A DNA stretch of 5,675 nucleotides from a virus. Its lineage: Duplodnaviria; Heunggongvirae; Uroviricota; Caudoviricetes. The DNA is taken from IMG/VR virus record IMGVR_UViG_2695420514_000021. One strand, given 5' to 3'. Below the pieces are notes generated by a model. It did no database searches. It saw nothing but the letters and a program-made list of their open reading frames with translations, and was not told where the DNA came from. Positions 1 through 5,675 of the stretch are shown here, piece by piece; positions within the stretch are counted from its first letter, which is position 1, and each line of letters starts with the position of its first letter. The translations under genes and the position numbers were made by a program.

Positions 1-756
1 GAAATTATCAGTAAGATTGGTGCCGATGCTGTGGCATTGCCTGAGAATTTCCGCATTCATGATCTGGAAAAATTTAATTTAAATCGCTTCCGTTTCCGTG
101 GTGCGCTTTCCACTGCCAGCATCGATGACTTTACCCGTTATTCTAAAGATCTTGCAGATGAAGGCACCCGCTGCTTTATCGATGCCGATAATATGCGAGC
201 AGTCAGTGTGCTTAACCTGGGTACTATTGATGAACCAGGTCACGCAGATAACACCGCCACTCTCAAACTGAAAAAGACAGCACCGTTCTCTGCCCTGTTG
301 TCTGTTAACGGCGAGCGTAACTCCCAGAAGTCACTGGCAGAATGGATTGAAGACTGGGCCGACTACCTTGTGGGCTTTGATGCTAATGGTGACGCTATTC
401 AGGCAACAAAAGCGGCTGCGGCGGTCCGTAAAATCACGATTGAAGCAAACCAGACCGCTGATTTTGAAGATAATGACTTCAGCGGCAAACGCTCCCTGAT
501 GGAGTCTGTCGAAGCGAAGACCAAAGACATTATGCCAGTGGCATTTGAATTTAAATGCGTTCCGTTTGAAGGTCTGAAAGAACGTCCATTTAAATTACGC
601 CTCAGCATTATCACTGGCGATCGTCCTGTACTGGTTCTGCGCATTATTCAGCTGGAAGCGGTGCAGGAAGAAATGGCTAACGAATTTCGTGATCTGCTTG
701 TTGAGAAATTTAAAGACAGCAAAGTAGAAACCTTTATTGGTACTTTCACCGCCTGA
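1..756 (+). CDS. yfdQ: YfdQ-like prophage protein (DUF2303 family), 5'-truncated by the window edge
   Basis: The open frame runs in-frame from nt 1 ([17 protein letters not shown]...) to TGA at 754-756, so the GTG at 31 is internal, not the start. The translation matches my recollection of CPS-53 YfdQ, and the gene sits directly upstream of yfdR/yfdS-like genes as in K-12. Confidence 0.8.
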
Positions 757-768
757 TTTCATTACTGC

Positions 769-795
769 AAATGCCCCTGCGGGGGCATTTATGGA
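769..795 (+). terminator. Putative rho-independent terminator or attenuator hairpin after the yfdQ-like gene
   Basis: Perfect inverted repeat AATGCCCC (770-777), loop TGCG, GGGGCATT (782-789), followed by TTAT. The U-tract is short, so it may be a partial terminator or processing site within the operon. Confidence 0.45.
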
Positions 796-883
796 AACAT
801 AATTTACTCAATAATCGCCGGATAGTGAGGGCTTCCTTTTACCAGAATTCAGCGCGGTGCAGCGCATATACGTGGAGAACAAA

Positions 884-1420
884 ATGTCATTTATTAAAAC
901 TTTTTCCGGGAAGCATTTTTATTATGACAGGATAAATAAAGACGACATCGTTATTAACGATATCGCGGTTTCCCTTTCAAATATCTGTCGCTTTGCAGGA
1001 CATCTTTCACACTTCTACAGCGTCGCCCAACATGCGGTGCTTTGCAGCCAGCTGGTACCGCAGGAATTTGCTTTTGAAGCGTTAATGCATGATGCAACAG
1101 AAGCATATTGCCAGGACATCCCCGCACCACTGAAACGCCTTCTTCCTGACTATAAACGGATGGAAGAAAAAATAGACGCCGTAATCCGTGAGAAATACGG
1201 GTTACCTCCTGTTATGAGCACGCCAGTGAAATATGCCGATCTCATTATGCTGGCAACCGAACGCCGCGATCTCGGGCTTGATGATGGCTCTTTCTGGCCT
1301 GTACTGGAAGGTATCCCGGCGACAGAGATGTTCAAAGTTATTCCACTGTCACCAGGCCATGCCTACGGGATGTTTATGGAACGTTTTAACGAGTTATCGG
1401 AGTTACGCAAATGCGCATGA
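884..1420 (+). CDS. yfdR: HD-domain phosphohydrolase (5'-deoxynucleotidase YfdR-like), 178 aa
   Basis: ATG at 884 is preceded by GGAGA at 873-877. The translation has a His...His-Asp signature (GHLSH; MHD at codons 68-70, nt 1085-1093) typical of HD phosphohydrolases. Length and sequence match my recollection of CPS-53 YfdR. The in-frame ATG at 857 lacks a good RBS. Confidence 0.88.
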   Translation: MSFIKTFSGKHFYYDRINKDDIVINDIAVSLSNICRFAGHLSHFYSVAQHAVLCSQLVPQEFAFEALMHDATEAYCQDIPAPLKRLLPDYKRMEEKIDAVIREKYGLPPVMSTPVKYADLIMLATERRDLGLDDGSFWPVLEGIPATEMFKVIPLSPGHAYGMFMERFNELSELRKCA

Positions 1421-1773
1421 ATGTTTTCGAAATGGAAGGGTTTCTTCGCGGGAAATGTGTACCGCGAGATCTGAAAGTGAACGAAACAAATGCTGAGTAC
1501 CTGGTACGTAAATTCGATGCGCTTGAAGCTAAATGTACGGCACTGGAAAACAAAATAATACCAGTGTCAGCTGAACTGCCACCAGCAAATGAAAGTGTTC
1601 TGTTATTTGATGCTAACGGAGAAGGCTGGCTAATTGGCTGGCGTTCTCTCTGGTACACCTGGGGACAAAAAGAAACCGGAGAATGGCAGTGGACATTTCA
1701 GGTCGGGGACCTTGAAAACGTCAATATCACTCACTGGGCAGTAATGCCGAAAGCACCGGAGAATAAGAAATGA
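1411..1773 (+). CDS. yfdS: YfdS-like prophage protein (DUF551-type), 120 aa
   Basis: ATG at 1411 with GGAG at 1399-1402. It overlaps the yfdR stop (TGA 1418-1420), indicating translational coupling. A Trp-rich C-terminus (GWLIGWRSLWYTWGQKETGEWQW) is typical of this family. A start at ATG 1417 is an alternative. Confidence 0.8.
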   Translation: MRMNVFEMEGFLRGKCVPRDLKVNETNAEYLVRKFDALEAKCTALENKIIPVSAELPPANESVLLFDANGEGWLIGWRSLWYTWGQKETGEWQWTFQVGDLENVNITHWAVMPKAPENKK

Positions 1774-1973
1774 GCGTGATAAAAACTCATACAGGAATTG
1801 TTATCACCCGAGACGGTCCGCAGGTAAAAAAACTGCACCAGACAAAGCGGATGTGGGTCGTCGGAAAAAACGAGTTTTACCACAAAGAAACCGGACGCCG
1901 CCACTTTGCAGAAAATACGCGCCGCCGACTGCTGATCGACAGCATCAAGCCTATCGAGGTGAAGCATGTTTAA
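1770..1973 (+). CDS. Small hypothetical phage protein, 67 aa, basic
   Basis: ATG at 1770 overlaps the yfdS stop (ATGA at 1770-1773). GGAGA at 1758-1762 gives RBS spacing of about 7 nt. Coding is supported mainly by the coupled arrangement; no family recognised. Confidence 0.55.
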   Translation: MSVIKTHTGIVITRDGPQVKKLHQTKRMWVVGKNEFYHKETGRRHFAENTRRRLLIDSIKPIEVKHV

Positions 1974-2205
1974 ACAGAACGAAAAATCTATCGCTCAAAT
2001 TGCTGAGTATATCCCGCGTGCGTGCCGGGGTATGCAGTTGCAGGAAGCCAAAGCGCGCCTGGAGAAAAAAATTGCGCTCTATATCGATGACGGCTGTGAT
2101 GCTGCCGTTCTTAACGCAGCGTTCGCGCCAGCTCTTAACAGTCATACGCGGGAGTCTTTTTTTTCGCGCATCGCAGCGCAGATCCGTAAAGGAGGCAACC
2201 AGTGA
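1966..2205 (+). CDS. Small hypothetical phage protein, 79 aa
   Basis: ATG at 1966 overlaps the preceding stop (TAA 1971-1973) and is preceded by GAGGTGAAGC. The gene ends in a GTGA overlap with the next gene. No family recognised. Confidence 0.6.
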   Translation: MFKQNEKSIAQIAEYIPRACRGMQLQEAKARLEKKIALYIDDGCDAAVLNAAFAPALNSHTRESFFSRIAAQIRKGGNQ

Positions 2206-2756
2206 GCGAGATTAACTATCAGGCTCTGCGACTGGCGGCAGAAAATGCAACACCAGGCGAATGGTGTGCTGATGACTACCATGGAGTAATTGCCGATGCC
2301 GGACTGAACGCCAATTACTACATAGCATCATGCTCAGGACCAGATAATCGCGCCAATAAACGATTCATAGCCGCCGCCAATCCTGCCACCGTCTTGGCGC
2401 TGCTGGATGAGCTGGAAGCAGCAGAGAAGCGAAACGCTGAATTACAAAGCGAGAATGCATACATCCGCAACCGGTACAAAGAACTGGACCTATTAATCGG
2501 GAAAAACATTCTGGTCATGCAGGCTGCCATTATCGAATGGCAGGCAACTGGCGACGCTAAGAGCGGACTGGCATGGATTTATAACACACTGTTTGGCCCT
2601 GGCGAATTACCGGACGAATCTGAGAAAGATGCTCAGGCCTACTTTAATCGCAAATATGCACCGATTGACGAAAAGCTTATGGCGCTTCACAAGTGGTTTT
2701 GGGAACAAAGTGAAGCCGAGCGCGCCGCCGCCAACATTGGTGTGAAGGGGAAGTGA
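2202..2756 (+). CDS. Ead/Ea22-like family protein, 184 aa
   Basis: GTG start at 2202 with a strong RBS AAAGGAGG at 2188-2195. The N-terminus (MSEINYQALR..AENATPGEW) and the DNRANKRFIAAANPATVLALLDELEAAEKRNAELQ segment resemble Ead/Ea22-like proteins of lambdoid prophages as I recall them. A central segment looks coiled-coil. Confidence 0.7.
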   Translation: MSEINYQALRLAAENATPGEWCADDYHGVIADAGLNANYYIASCSGPDNRANKRFIAAANPATVLALLDELEAAEKRNAELQSENAYIRNRYKELDLLIGKNILVMQAAIIEWQATGDAKSGLAWIYNTLFGPGELPDESEKDAQAYFNRKYAPIDEKLMALHKWFWEQSEAERAAANIGVKGK

Positions 2757-2757
2757 G

Positions 2758-2949
2758 ATGAACGGACAAATCTCAATTGTTCGACCGGGAGCATGTGACG
2801 ATTGCGAGATACGAATGATTATTCGTCTGGCGAGGGGGAAAACAATAACTGCTCTCATTACTCCTGAAAATCTCGCATTAGCATTAACAGGAAAGTCAGA
2901 CCTGCCAGTAGAGCTAAAGCTGCGAAATATTGAGATTAAAGTGAAATAG
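2758..2949 (+). CDS. Small hypothetical phage protein, 63 aa
   Basis: ATG at 2758 lies 1 nt after the upstream stop (TGA 2754-2756), with GAAGGGGAAG just upstream as RBS. No family recognised. Confidence 0.5.
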   Translation: MNGQISIVRPGACDDCEIRMIIRLARGKTITALITPENLALALTGKSDLPVELKLRNIEIKVK

Positions 2950-2951
2950 TT

Positions 2952-3719
2952 ATGAATACTCTTACCAAAGAATGGTTACAGAACACGATTACCAGCATTG
3001 AGTCAGCACGGGATGAAATACCGTTCGGACTCGATGAAGATCAAAACAACATGCTTACCGCATTAAAAATTGCACTGGCATCACTGGCAGCAGTATCAGA
3101 TGAACGAGCAGCCTATGAATTATTTATGGAGAAGCGTTTCGGGGAATCTGTAGATCGTCGCAGAGCAAAAAATGGCGATTGCGAATACATGGCATGGGAT
3201 ATGGCGCTTGGCTGGATTATCTGGTGTCACCGCACCGCCATGCTTCAGGGTAACCAACCTGTAAGCCAAACTTACAAGTTTCCACAAACGCAGTTTGAAG
3301 AGGTTGCTGACCTCTACGAAATGCAATTTGATGACGGACGCACTTGTGCCTTTCATAGTGATGTGCAAAAGGCTGCACAATGGCTTCAGGCATGCGACGG
3401 AAACAGGGTTCAGGAATACGTGAAGTTGGAACGATTGCAGAACGCGCTGTCTGATAACTCTCCAGTAACTCCGGATGGTTGGGTTATGGTTCCGAAGAAA
3501 CTAACCGCTGAGAACGGCGCTAAAGGTGTGCTATCCGGTGAATTTTCAGAATCTACGTTTATAAGCTGCCCGGAATGTTTTGGCGATGATGATTGCGATA
3601 CCTGTGACGGGAGCGGACGTATTGAAATTAAAGTGCCAGTCACGTGGTCGACCATAAAATCTATCTGGGATAAAGGTATCGAGTATTTTGCAGCAAAACC
3701 ATCACAAGAGGTGAAGTGA
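2952..3719 (+). CDS. Hypothetical phage protein, 255 aa, with a C-terminal DnaJ-type zinc-ribbon-like motif
   Basis: Long ORF with ATG at 2952, 2 nt after the upstream stop. The motif CPECFGDDDCDTCDGSG at nt 3567-3617 contains a CxxCxGxG unit plus a second CxxC. The RBS is weak, so the exact start is uncertain. Confidence 0.75.
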   Translation: MNTLTKEWLQNTITSIESARDEIPFGLDEDQNNMLTALKIALASLAAVSDERAAYELFMEKRFGESVDRRRAKNGDCEYMAWDMALGWIIWCHRTAMLQGNQPVSQTYKFPQTQFEEVADLYEMQFDDGRTCAFHSDVQKAAQWLQACDGNRVQEYVKLERLQNALSDNSPVTPDGWVMVPKKLTAENGAKGVLSGEFSESTFISCPECFGDDDCDTCDGSGRIEIKVPVTWSTIKSIWDKGIEYFAAKPSQEVK

Positions 3720-4291
3720 TGAACAACTTAATGATCGACCTTGAGACGATGGGGAAAAATAAGGATGCACCGATCGTTTCCATTGGCGCGGTGTTCTTCA
3801 CTCCAGAAACCGGAGACATCGGACAAGAATTCTATGCGGTTGTCAGCCTAGACAGTGCTATGAAGCAAGGAGCTACACCTGACGGCGATACCATCCTGTG
3901 GTGGTTGAAACAAAGCCCTGAAGCGCGAGCTGCAATCTGTATTGATGATACTTTGTCGATCAGCGATGCTCTCTCAGAACTAAACCATTTCATTAACCGG
4001 CACGCAGACAATACGAAATATTTAAAAGTCTGGGGTAACGGGGCCACCTTCGACAACGTAATTTTACGTGGAGCTTATGAGCGAGCAGGACAAATCTGCC
4101 CGTGGGCGTACTGGAATGACCACGATGTACGCACGATCGTTACGCTTGGGCGTTCCATCGGATTCGACCCCAAAATGGACATGCCTTTCGATGGCGAACG
4201 GCACAACGCCCTGGCTGATGCCCGTCATCAGGCAAAATATGTTTCCGCTATCTGGCAGAAATTAATTCCTGCCACCAGCACAGAATTATGA
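3719..4291 (+). CDS. Prophage 3'-5' exonuclease of the DEDDh (DnaQ-like) superfamily, 190 aa
   Basis: ATG at 3719 (the GTG at 3716 overlaps the upstream TGA), with GAGGTG at 3706-3711 as RBS. The translation shows Exo I (MIDLETMG), Exo II (WGNGATFDNVIL) and Exo III (HNALADARH, HxxxxD) motifs in the expected order. This small exonuclease is a conserved resident next to xis/int in lambdoid prophages; the truncated ypdJ of K-12 is the equivalent remnant, as far as I recall. Confidence 0.85.
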   Translation: MNNLMIDLETMGKNKDAPIVSIGAVFFTPETGDIGQEFYAVVSLDSAMKQGATPDGDTILWWLKQSPEARAAICIDDTLSISDALSELNHFINRHADNTKYLKVWGNGATFDNVILRGAYERAGQICPWAYWNDHDVRTIVTLGRSIGFDPKMDMPFDGERHNALADARHQAKYVSAIWQKLIPATSTEL

Positions 4292-4327
4292 TTTTCCCGG
4301 GTGCAGCCGGTTTTGATGGAGAAAATT

Positions 4328-4597
4328 ATGAACACCTTGTTTTTACTGATGGCTGAATTCAATACCCCAAACATTGAACTCTCAGCAGTTAGTCAAAAAT
4401 ACTTTGGTATGAGTCCAGCCACAGCAGAAGCAAAAGCAAACGCTTGTAAGTTGCCTGTACCTACATATCGCATCGGTACATCACAAAAAGCAAAACGCTG
4501 CATCAACATTCAGGATCTTGCGGAATATATTGACAAAAGACGGGAAGAAGGGCGAGCTGAGTGGGAAAAAGTCAGAACGGAAAAAAAATATAACTAA
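4328..4597 (+). CDS. Excisionase-like DNA-binding protein (PrtN/AlpA-type), 89 aa
   Basis: ATG at 4328 with GGAG at 4317-4320. The N-terminus MNTLFLLMAEF and the ...SQKAKRCINIQDLAEYIDKRREEG segment resemble the PrtN family as I recall it. It is the last gene of the + strand operon, the canonical xis position. The in-frame ATG at 4301 lacks an RBS. Confidence 0.75.
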   Translation: MNTLFLLMAEFNTPNIELSAVSQKYFGMSPATAEAKANACKLPVPTYRIGTSQKAKRCINIQDLAEYIDKRREEGRAEWEKVRTEKKYN

Positions 4598-4610
4598 ACT
4601 AAAACTATGG

Positions 4611-4642
4611 ATAACCCGTATATGTACGGGTTATTTTTCTTT
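4611..4642. terminator. Rho-independent terminator between convergent genes, probably bidirectional
   Basis: Stem AACCCGTA (4613-4620), loop TATG, TACGGGTT (4625-4632), followed on the + strand by ATTTTTCTTTAT. On the - strand the T-tract is poorer and starts a few nt after the stem. The TAA stop of the - strand gene (4631-4633) lies inside the stem. Confidence 0.7.
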
Positions 4643-5179
4643 ATCACTATCTTTTCTTGATTTGAACAATCCACTAACAACGAAACCAACCAAACCAACA
4701 ATACTAATTGTACTTGTACCTAGTAATGCAACGATCGCTTCAACTGGAGGCTTTCCTTCATGTGCAATAAGAAACGATGTAAACATTGCGACAACGAATA
4801 AGCACCAACACGACATAAACCAAACCGTGAATGATGCCATTTTTGTCCGGAGCTCATTGTCTATTTCTTTACCAGTTGCGTCAGCTATCTTATCCCGTAC
4901 TTGTGATTTGAGCATATCAAGCTGAGCTTGAAGACTGTCCATTCTGTTCTGCTGCATAAACTCATGCAATGCACCAGTATTAGAACCAAACTCTTCTTCC
5001 TCCAGAATAGCCTTATTTTCTGAAGAAGAATCATCATCGCGTTCATGATTAGACGGCTCAAATGCGGATTCAAAAGCCTGCTCTTGACTGTCAGTAGAGT
5101 TTAAGGATGCTTCAGAGCGACCATTTTCAACACCTGCGGCCGCTCCGATCAGTTTATAGATATCTGAATTATGAGACAT
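4631..5179 (-). CDS. Hypothetical membrane protein, 182 aa: acidic Ser/Glu/Asp-rich N-terminal domain plus two predicted C-terminal TM helices; candidate toxin/effector partner of the upstream Panacea-like gene
   Basis: ATG at 5179-5177 (- strand) preceded by AGGGATGAC, stop TAA at 4633-4631. The N-terminal roughly 110 aa are hydrophilic and acidic (ERDDDSSSENKAILEEEEFG) with a likely helical stretch (MDSLQAQLDMLKSQVRDKIADATG). Two hydrophobic stretches follow (FTVWFMSCWCLFVVAMFTSFLIA and AIVALLGTSTISIVGLVGFVVSGLF, about nt 4664-4831). No family recognised. Confidence 0.72.
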   Translation of the reverse strand: MSHNSDIYKLIGAAAGVENGRSEASLNSTDSQEQAFESAFEPSNHERDDDSSSENKAILEEEEFGSNTGALHEFMQQNRMDSLQAQLDMLKSQVRDKIADATGKEIDNELRTKMASFTVWFMSCWCLFVVAMFTSFLIAHEGKPPVEAIVALLGTSTISIVGLVGFVVSGLFKSRKDSDKEK

Positions 5180-5201
5180 GTCATCCCTGAATATTACTTT
5201 T

Positions 5202-5675
5202 TCAGAGGCCCTGACATTGCTGTCGGTTATTCAATAAATCATGATAATAAGCCTTGATCGCATCATTTGAGATGATCGACGAGCCAATACCATTATAAGC
5301 TTGTGACCAAGGCGTACCTGGCATATGAGTTAGAGTTGATAACTCAATTCCATTTTTCGAGCCGTAAAACTTATAAACAGCCCCGATAATGCTCTCTGCT
5401 TGCGGATCCATAGTAACGATGCCACCAAAAGGAGCTACTGCTACATTCGTAACAGGTTTATTCCCATAGTCTTTGAAAGCATCGTACATTCCAGGAATAA
5501 CTGGACCGTACTTCCACGCGGAGACACATTCATTGAGCAAAGGCTTACCTGTTAATGCTAAATAGTAACCATGGGCAATATAAGTAAGCTTCTGCAGTTG
5601 CATGTGGGTCAGAGGATTATGATGTTGGTTTCCCAACGTTATGAATTTATTGGCTATTTGTACCGGACTGTACAT
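5202..5675 (-). CDS. Panacea-domain (DUF4065; COG3600/GepA, SocA-like) protein, 157 aa; putative antitoxin or adaptor
   Basis: The ATG is the last three nt of the window (5675-5673, - strand), stop TGA at 5204-5202. The N-terminus MYSPVQIANKFI and the core LQKLTYIAHGYYLALTGKPLLNECVSAWKYGPVIPGMYDAFKDYG (about nt 5484-5600) match the Panacea/DUF4065 pattern as I recall it. The ORF could extend beyond the window edge, since no upstream stop or RBS is visible. Confidence 0.75.
   Translation of the reverse strand: MYSPVQIANKFITLGNQHHNPLTHMQLQKLTYIAHGYYLALTGKPLLNECVSAWKYGPVIPGMYDAFKDYGNKPVTNVAVAPFGGIVTMDPQAESIIGAVYKFYGSKNGIELSTLTHMPGTPWSQAYNGIGSSIISNDAIKAYYHDLLNNRQQCQGL

Follow-up and report, generated by a model that had tools for sequence, protein, structure and literature searches.

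A mosaic open reading frame in a tailed-phage early region and its C-terminal domain with a putative cysteine knuckle

A stretch of tailed-phage DNA (Caudoviricetes; IMG/VR record IMGVR_UViG_2695420514_000021), 5,675 nucleotides (nt) long and referred to below at its full length as the window, contains on its plus strand an open reading frame (ORF) at 2952-3719, which starts with ATG, runs uninterrupted through 255 amino acids (aa) and ends in the TGA at 3717-3719. The encoded protein, hereafter the target, is hydrophilic and contains Trp, as a preliminary description made from the sequence had stated (8 Trp, net charge -15, isoelectric point (pI) 4.6), and as a whole it matches no family of Pfam (E ≤ 0.1) or NCBIfam (E ≤ 1). 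Near its C-terminus lie two CxxC pairs, one of them with the exact CxxCxGxG form of the DnaJ cysteine-rich domain, and the question raised by this locus is what kind of protein carries such a motif: a chaperone, a nucleic acid-binding ribbon, a scar of recombination, a redox switch or an accessory protein of another type. We find that the target is built from four modules, each of them exchangeable, with short conserved linkers between them. The last of these, module D, is described here as an autonomous domain in which the cysteines occupy an optional knuckle, and in this anatomical description we have high confidence. With moderate confidence, the target appears to be a functional, recombination-assembled mosaic protein of the Ea22/EaA type, one of the early accessory proteins of lambdoid and CPS-53-like prophages.

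Modules and linkers of the target

In a sliding-window comparison of its DNA with that of its relatives, the identity of the target switches abruptly at aa ~41-45 (ALASLAAV), ~101-110 (AMLQG.QPVSQTYK) and ~167-176 (GNSPVTPDGW), and crossovers therefore appear to have taken place in short conserved linkers with the frame preserved. The parts delimited in this manner, together with the overlap with the following gene, are:

2952-3719, plus strand: the target ORF, an in-frame mosaic of four modules, intact at 255 aa
2952-3077, plus strand: module A (aa 1 to ~42), an N-terminal segment common to JLK-2012 gp05 and E. coli EcPF16, ending in the linker ALASLAAV (sliding-window identity)
3078-3266, plus strand: module B (aa ~43-105), common to the JLK-2012, K-15KW01 and EcPF16 genes, ending in the linker AMLQG.QPVSQTYK (sliding-window identity)
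3267-3455, plus strand: module C (aa ~106-168), an internal segment of the Ea22 proteins of Shiga toxin (Stx) phages (identity to 933W L0140 and PhiR47_1)
3456-3479, plus strand: adapter linker NSPVTPDG (aa 169-176), the crossover point ahead of the Cys module (module D) or DUF551 in relatives (comparison of relatives)
3480-3716, plus strand: module D (aa 177-255), an autonomous 'LTAENGAK' domain with a putative zinc knuckle, composed of an extended segment, a short helix, a β-strand, the knuckle, a β-strand and a long helix (profile search, AlphaFold2 and ratio of nonsynonymous to synonymous substitution rates (dN/dS))
3708-3721, plus strand: a Shine-Dalgarno-like GAGGTG within the codons of E-V-K, followed by a TGA/ATG overlap with an exonuclease gene (read from the sequence)

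The two ends of the gene lead to different relatives. The first ~336 nt are 97% identical to gp05 of phage JLK-2012, a 248-aa protein ending in DUF551, and the last ~480 nt match, at 92% identity, an 'Ea22' gene with a different N-terminus in phage PhiR47_1. In sliding windows, module A is 100% identical to JLK-2012 and EcPF16 and only 27-57% to K-15KW01; module B is 90-100% identical to three different genes, with 47-77% to PhiR47_1; and module C shares 83-97% with the PhiR47_1 'Ea22' gene. At the protein level, module C and its linker (aa 104-172) show 80% identity to residues 159-227 of 933W L0140 (Ea22). The L0140 gene lies after a TraR/DksA (orf73) homologue and is therefore the ea22 gene of 933W, in whose product the linker NSPVTPDGW leads into DUF551 rather than the Cys module. 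Across 139 representative architectures of proteins carrying module D the linker has the consensus GNSPVxPDG. No Pfam or NCBIfam match was obtained for modules A, B or C taken singly, and the PHROGs to which A (phrog_3323 and phrog_5117) and B (phrog_660) belong are of unknown function. The preliminary description had treated everything outside the cysteine motif as a single unrecognised domain; in its place stand three exchangeable modules with relatives, among them the N-terminus of JLK-2012 gp05 and the internal 933W Ea22 segment.

Modules A and B derive from 'DUF551-type' genes; known DUF551 proteins are E. coli YfdS and JLK-2012 gp05. The first ~110 codons of the target are ~97% identical in DNA to JLK-2012 gp05, and in DUF551 proteins an NSPxTPDxW adapter linker precedes the C-terminal module, as it does in the target. 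DUF551 and the Cys module fill the same slot and sometimes occur in tandem in one protein. However, the DUF551 domain itself (PF04448) was not found in the target by Pfam, the DUF551 of JLK-2012 gp05 being replaced by modules C and D, and the RefSeq name 'DUF551 domain-containing protein' given at this locus reflects the shared N-terminus only.

The C-terminal module and its cysteine loop

A profile of aa 177-255 retrieved at least 1,435 representatives of 50%-identity clusters, 267 of them at E ≤ 1e-30, and the top 150 representatives, each from another cluster, score ~165-175 bits throughout; the module therefore hardly varies among proteins that are otherwise different. It is usually C-terminal, being internal in 21 of 343 proteins, where it is followed by a second linker (AAPQSPG…ATVPGKW) and DUF551. 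Its partners in the 139 representative architectures include DUF551 (14), a DUF550-type dATP/dGTP pyrophosphohydrolase (10) and Ead_Ea22 (3), with no partner recognisable by Pfam in ~110. A second search, seeded with the copies of Serratia phage OS31 and Pseudomonas phage pAN, yielded 136 proteins, many of them stand-alone forms of 63-90 aa. When one genome per species was scanned with the exact LTAENGAK pattern as sole query, 49 loci were found in Gamma-, Beta- and Alphaproteobacteria, Bacteroidota, Planctomycetota and Verrucomicrobiota. The surroundings of the module are always a prophage early or accessory region, with int/xis, ERF, SSB, primase/helicase, TraR-like and DNA methyltransferase genes nearby, and the survey of neighbouring families returned otherwise generic early-region genes only. 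In Pseudomonas prophages, no family is more frequent next to the Cys module than the DNA methyltransferases, with 13 of 98 neighbouring ORFs.

The conservation of this module is concentrated in two blocks that flank a hairpin, P-x-x-LTAENGAK-x2-L-x-GEF and W-x-TIK-x-I(Y/W), and the cysteines sit in a loop of variable length between them:

3501-3545, plus strand: invariant block LTAENGAKGVLSGEF (aa 184-198; alignment of 80 diverse sequences)
3567-3617, plus strand: CPECFGDDDCDTCDGSG (aa 206-222), a putative Cys4 metal knuckle at the tip of a β-hairpin, net charge -6 (sequence, family conservation, and weak DnaJ_CXXCXGXG, Anti-TRAP and BSD2 similarity)
3645-3668, plus strand: second invariant block WSTIKSIW (aa 232-239), at the start of the C-terminal helix, with the family consensus W-T-T-I-K-D-I-Y (alignment of 80 diverse sequences)

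In module numbering, P5, L8, N12, G13, A14, K15, F22, W56 and K60 are invariant among the 80 diverse sequences, T9, A10, E11, L18, G20, E21, T58, I59 and I62 are conserved in at least 90% of them, and all invariant positions are present in the target. The dN/dS of module D is 0.17 against the PhiR47_1 copy, 0.13 against Klebsiella and 0.11 against ST64B, values that point to purifying selection, which concerns the module family and not this copy specifically. Searched alone, module D matches phrog_60 (E = 1.3e-16), and the 'LTAENGAK' domain corresponds in part to phrog_60 and phrog_17234, both of unknown function. As a domain it is undescribed, since neither Pfam nor NCBIfam has a family for it, its PHROGs are of unknown function, and there is no solved or similar structure.

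An AlphaFold2 model computed from the 80-sequence alignment reached a mean predicted local distance difference test (pLDDT) score of 90.0, with 85-93 over the knuckle, and a predicted template modelling score of 0.70; a model from 12 near-identical sequences had a pLDDT of 42.6 and was unusable, so that the former was used instead. In module residues, the predicted elements are an extended N-terminal segment, a helix at 14-18, a strand at 23-29, the knuckle at 30-46, a second strand at 47-53 and a long helix at 56-72. The preliminary description had pictured a zinc ribbon appended to one novel domain, and this arrangement does not hold, since the knuckle is inserted within a domain of ~75 aa that is itself conserved and autonomous. 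Sequence searches of the PDB with the single protein and with the 80-sequence profile gave non-significant matches only, the DnaJ cysteine-rich domain appearing at E = 6.9 and 0.31. A match to the Ig domain of Nav β2 (E = 0.013) was judged spurious.

The motif itself is borne out in DNA and translation as it had been described. The cysteines are at aa 206, 209, 215 and 218; CDTCDGSG is an exact CxxCxGxG and CPECFGDD a CxxCxGxx. A CxxC-x(2-20)-CxxC arrangement together with CxxCxGxG arose in 2 of 200,000 shuffles of the target's own residues (1e-5), and the motif is therefore no compositional accident. All four cysteines are invariant in 120 of 120 close relatives, in which the GxG tail varies (CDGSG to CDCSG or CDRSG), they are kept with a different spacing in the OS31 and pAN copies (at ~42% identity the most distant phage copies found), and at least four cysteines are present in 97 of 117 diverse members of the family, in variable arrangements that include a CGCGxCxxC form. 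The proposal that these residues form a metal site is thus plausible. Nevertheless, in 17 of the 117 diverse members the loop holds 0-2 cysteines in a shorter hairpin rich in Asp and Glu. The preliminary description had stated that cysteines not conserved among homologues would speak against its reading, and in part they are not: across these sequences the site is common and clearly selected, but not defining for the family. The acidity of the tip is more constant, as all 97 tips with at least four cysteines are net negative (mean -5.7, 2% K/R) and 13 of the 17 Cys-poor ones are negative too.

Two natural variants of the loop were also observed. In sb31 of Salmonella phage ST64B (L062:1907-2740; also in 118970_sal3) a Phe stands in place of the first Cys (ISFPEC…CESCDGSG), leaving three cysteines, and in a subgroup of the family (P0464, P0469, P0470, P0472, P0476, P0478, P0479, P0486 and others) NP(D/E)(Y/F)CGCGxCxxC replaces CxxC…CxxC. 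This alternative four-Cys arrangement suggests that metal staples may have been gained independently in the same loop.

One explanation that follows directly from the motif is a DnaJ-like chaperone, holdase or thiol-disulfide module whose knuckle binds unfolded clients or recruits DnaK, and we regard it as highly improbable. In its favor are the exact CxxCxGxG of CDTCDGSG and weak Pfam matches among the 80 members, 18 to DnaJ_CXXCXGXG (PF00684; best E = 1e-5), 14 to Anti-TRAP and 2 to BSD2_CRD; a comparison by hhalign of the family with the cysteine-rich domain of E. coli DnaJ gave a 67% probability. Likewise, relatives are labelled 'molecular chaperone DnaJ' by the NCBI Prokaryotic Genome Annotation Pipeline (PGAP), which in one other strain splits the ORF and gives this name to the 3' part. 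However, the hhalign similarity spans 33 columns, those of the knuckle only, the copy in the target has no PF00684 match at E ≤ 0.1, and 17 of 117 members keep the scaffold with the cysteines missing. DnaJ/Hsp40 membership was rejected, as the 255 aa contain no J domain, no HPD tripeptide and no DnaJ_C match, and the AlphaFold2 model of module D is a hairpin with helices. The four-repeat cysteine-rich domain of DnaJ was rejected as well: DnaJ has four repeats, two metal sites and a J domain, while the target has two CxxC pairs with a single exact CxxCxGxG, hence one putative site and no second metal centre. Its knuckle is also highly acidic, unlike the E. coli DnaJ cysteine-rich sequence with which it was compared. 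What the target has in common with the DnaJ cysteine-rich domain, Anti-TRAP and BSD2 are paired CxxCxGxG-type units, which in those proteins bind one Zn at a hairpin tip and in the target form a putative site; in contrast to them, its knuckle is a strongly acidic, optional insert in an unrelated α/β scaffold and stays below Pfam significance. The DnaJ-like character noted in the preliminary description therefore stands for the knuckle, for which 'DnaJ-type CxxCxGxG hairpin' would be a fair description, and fails for the protein. The literature on CXXCXGXG in phages returned unrelated marine-phage annotations only.

A second explanation is a zinc ribbon that binds nucleic acid, such as a small regulator of transcription or replication contacting DNA or RNA through the Cys4 hairpin; nucleic acid binding had been one of the two roles suggested in the preliminary description. 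Cys4 ribbons are frequently nucleic-acid binders, and the neighbors are rich in DNA metabolism (the exonuclease and YfdR here; SSB, ERF or primase at other loci). Against this, the module has a pI of 4.65, the tip carries a charge of -6, K and R make up 2% of the tip residues over 97 members, and neither the Pfam nor the PDB sequence searches yielded a nucleic acid-binding family, so that such a role is unlikely.

Integrity of the gene and its proposed role

The placement of the gene agrees with the preliminary description, which put it between an Ea22-like gene and an exonuclease, with the addition of a small ORF. The upstream Ead/Ea22-like gene (2202-2756) matches PF13935 (E = 1.6e-19); it is followed by a 63-aa ORF at 2758-2949, after whose stop the ATG of the target lies 2 nt downstream, and directly after the target comes a gene for an Rv2179c-type 3'-5' exonuclease, whose ATG at 3719, in agreement with the RefSeq start of that gene, overlaps the TGA of the target. 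Together with the internal GAGGTG, this overlap suggests a putative translational coupling of the two genes. Paralogy of the target with the adjacent Ea22-like gene was rejected, as no similarity exists between the two ORFs.

This is the niche of the Ea22 proteins of lambda and Stx phages, early-left accessory genes adjoining xis/int in the exo-xis region. According to the Ea22 literature, these proteins vary at the N-terminus, oligomerise through a coiled coil, carry acidic C-terminal domains that are portable and act in a pro-lysogenic manner (PMC7093339, PMC8614690, PMC10834534), and their genes are mosaic (PMC7093339, PMC10834534); the same two papers place Ea22-class genes among the earliest and most highly transcribed of Stx phages and describe them as biasing the lysis-lysogeny decision. 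The target resembles them in being a mosaic gene with a portable acidic C-terminal domain, and it displays the further features of this architectural class, namely a 933W Ea22 segment, a pI of 4.6 and a PrtN-type excisionase-like gene downstream. In addition, GenBank phage records name full-length carriers of the Cys module 'Ea22'. The Ea22 C-terminal domains mentioned in the available portions of that literature are that of lambda, DUF551 and variant domains, and module D is not among them; by analogy, it would join them as a further acidic head of the portable kind. Early proteins of the Ea22 type, mosaic in structure and with portable C-terminal domains, were known already, and sequences of module D are present in databases as hypothetical, 'Ea22' or 'DnaJ' proteins; what is new is this combination of modules and the definition of the head domain. 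A small zinc-containing protein of the same exo-xis/ea region is lambda Ea8.5, with a hybrid homeodomain/zinc-finger fold (PDB 2M7A; PMC8614690), and no Ea8.5-type entry was returned by the PDB sequence searches with the target.

Several observations weigh against the target being a functional protein of the Ea22 class. Its exact four-module combination is rare: of 5,426 complete E. coli genomes, no more than 3 have an identical copy of the full gene, although hundreds hold parts of it, and no phage record contains it at full length (72 give partial matches). PGAP treats the identical E. coli copy (L003:6001-6768) as a pseudogene, calling its first 297 nt 'DUF551… missing C-terminus'. The target lacks the Ead_Ea22 N-terminal/coiled-coil domain (PF13935), which sits in the separate gene at 2202-2756, and 'Ea22-class' thus refers to architecture and position, not to Pfam membership. 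The enrichment of DNA methylases among the neighbors of module D comes mostly from related Pseudomonas prophages, which are not independent observations. Finally, the fold offers no functional hint, as Foldseek gave no PDB match below E = 1 and a best match of E = 0.064 in the viral library.

The first two of these observations, together with the rest of the gene being left unannotated by PGAP and the exact protein not being among the called proteins returned, would be expected of a non-functional recombination scar, in which a truncated DUF551-type gene had by chance been joined in frame to an Ea22-type 3' part in a decaying prophage. We nevertheless consider a scar to be improbable, because its 255 codons are unbroken, all three junctions lie in conserved linkers and in frame, and the start and stop codons are coupled to both neighbors; purifying selection acts on module D as well, as a property of the module family and not specifically of this copy. 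Alternative combinations of the modules occur at loci L001, L002, L004 and L005, and other combinations that are intact ORFs too, of 246, 269 and 285 aa (the 246- and 285-aa ones in two further E. coli prophages), are likewise split by PGAP. On the grounds of an intact ORF, in-frame junctions, coupled starts and stops and a low dN/dS in module D, the target is taken to be a probably functional gene, in disagreement with the pseudogene call, and the expression of this combination is a prediction. The annotation of this locus type is in itself instructive, as the analysis exposes systematic PGAP errors on intact mosaic ORFs, which at L003:6001-6768, L004:2407-3147 and L005:2001-2858 (E. coli RefSeq) appear as truncated pseudogenes, split genes or under wrong names; both 'molecular chaperone DnaJ' and 'DUF551 domain-containing protein' are given with neither a J domain nor DUF551 present.

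If the target is indeed a functional Ea22/EaA-type protein, a zinc-stapled protein-binding head would be its most likely specific mechanism, and this proposal is a tentative one. C206, C209, C215 and C218 would bind one Zn2+ and thereby staple and rigidify the acidic hairpin, a structural role that would be dispensable, given that an acidic hairpin, though a shorter one, is retained in members devoid of cysteines. Module D would act as a protein-binding head, whose acidic hairpin and invariant polar face (T, E, N, K, E, T, K, D) would together contact a basic surface of its partner, either a conserved protein of the bacterium or one of the phage; the spread of the module across phyla argues for a highly conserved target of binding. 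Such binding might contribute, early after infection or induction, to the way in which Ea22-class proteins modulate host physiology or the choice between lysis and lysogeny, with the upstream modules A-C serving as interchangeable scaffolds or extra heads. A practical consequence is that an interchangeable Ea22-type head, being an autonomous domain found across phyla, with a clear invariant surface and stand-alone forms of 63-90 aa, would provide a compact handle in the hunt for partners. The optional character of the staple also illustrates that a Cys motif, however striking, is not necessarily what the function of a domain centres on.

Cys4-Zn sites are able to serve as redox switches, and the knuckle could in principle be a redox or zinc-release switch, in which H2O2 oxidises the Cys4-Zn site, shifts the acidic hairpin and couples oxidative stress to prophage development. 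The setting would suit such a switch: the exo-xis region affects H2O2-triggered induction (PMC4699033), and the loss of yfdS (DUF551), a gene of the neighbouring type, sensitises cells to H2O2 (PMC4776307, PMC10834534). However, the existence of Cys-free members and of the three-Cys ST64B copy suggests a core function independent of the site, and we hold this explanation to be of low probability.

A bolder version of the binding-head proposal can be formulated, which we regard as doubtful. The LTAENGAK module would then be a new fold and a broad-host-range effector head directed against a universally conserved bacterial protein, its hairpin either mimicking nucleic acid or acting as a zinc- or redox-gated plug, and it would be one cassette of a linker-mediated shuffling system (the Cys module, DUF551, the DUF550 pyrophosphohydrolase and Ea22 C-terminal domains) in which dozens of small effector domains are combined into multi-headed early proteins. 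Viewed more soberly, the target is a tidy example of phage domain shuffling and not a new kind of system.

Gene ends and prophage surroundings

The ends of the genes in this region show a recurrent pattern. At 2740-2760 the Ea22-like gene ends in …AAG GGG AAG TGA G ATG (K-G-K stop), and at 3708-3721 the target ends in GAG GTG AAG TGA TG (E-V-K stop), many relatives terminating in …EVKGE. Read in this way, the C-terminal tails of the mosaic proteins would double as the ribosome-binding site of the next gene. An unexplained 'K/R-G-E' end motif has been published for Ea22 proteins (PMC7093339), and it may be no more than the translation of a Shine-Dalgarno sequence. In the 63-aa ORF at 2758-2949, the final 34 residues match the C-terminal end of the DNA-methyltransferase phrog_11564 (E = 5.8e-5). 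Within the target gene, a scan for promoters and terminators gave nothing above the expectation from shuffled sequence, and Rfam detected no RNA family in the window.

Upstream, at 31-1773, lie homologues of genes of the CPS-53 cluster, namely yfdQ (DUF2303), yfdR (HD 5'-deoxynucleotidase) and yfdS (DUF551). When present in multicopy, the cluster inhibits the initiation of replication in E. coli K-12, and YfdR binds DnaA (PMC4776307). At the other end, convergent to the early operon, lies a PanT/PanA-type toxin-antitoxin pair on the minus strand: the gene at 4631-5179 encodes a 182-aa membrane-helix protein, 98% identical to the 'PanT toxin' of phage PhiR47_1, and the one at 5202-5675, which is cut off by the end of the window, encodes a SocA/Panacea antitoxin domain (Pfam E = 5.9e-18; NCBIfam SocA_antitoxin E = 1e-27). 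The PrtN/excisionase-like gene (4301-4597) converges on the PanT gene, and the hairpin between them (4609-4636), with a 12-bp stem and T-runs on both strands, looks like a bidirectional intrinsic terminator.

The window as a whole (1-5675) is present in no complete E. coli genome, the best cover being 83%, and its PanT/PanA end and its early-operon part co-occur solely in other arrangements; the prophage itself is therefore mosaic. Prophages bearing the module adjoin a dus (tRNA-dihydrouridine synthase) gene or a fragment of it both in E. coli ESBL 15 (L003:8756-8860) and in 'Ca. Reddybacter' (L010/L011:7839-9029), which hints at a dusA-type integration in distant hosts.

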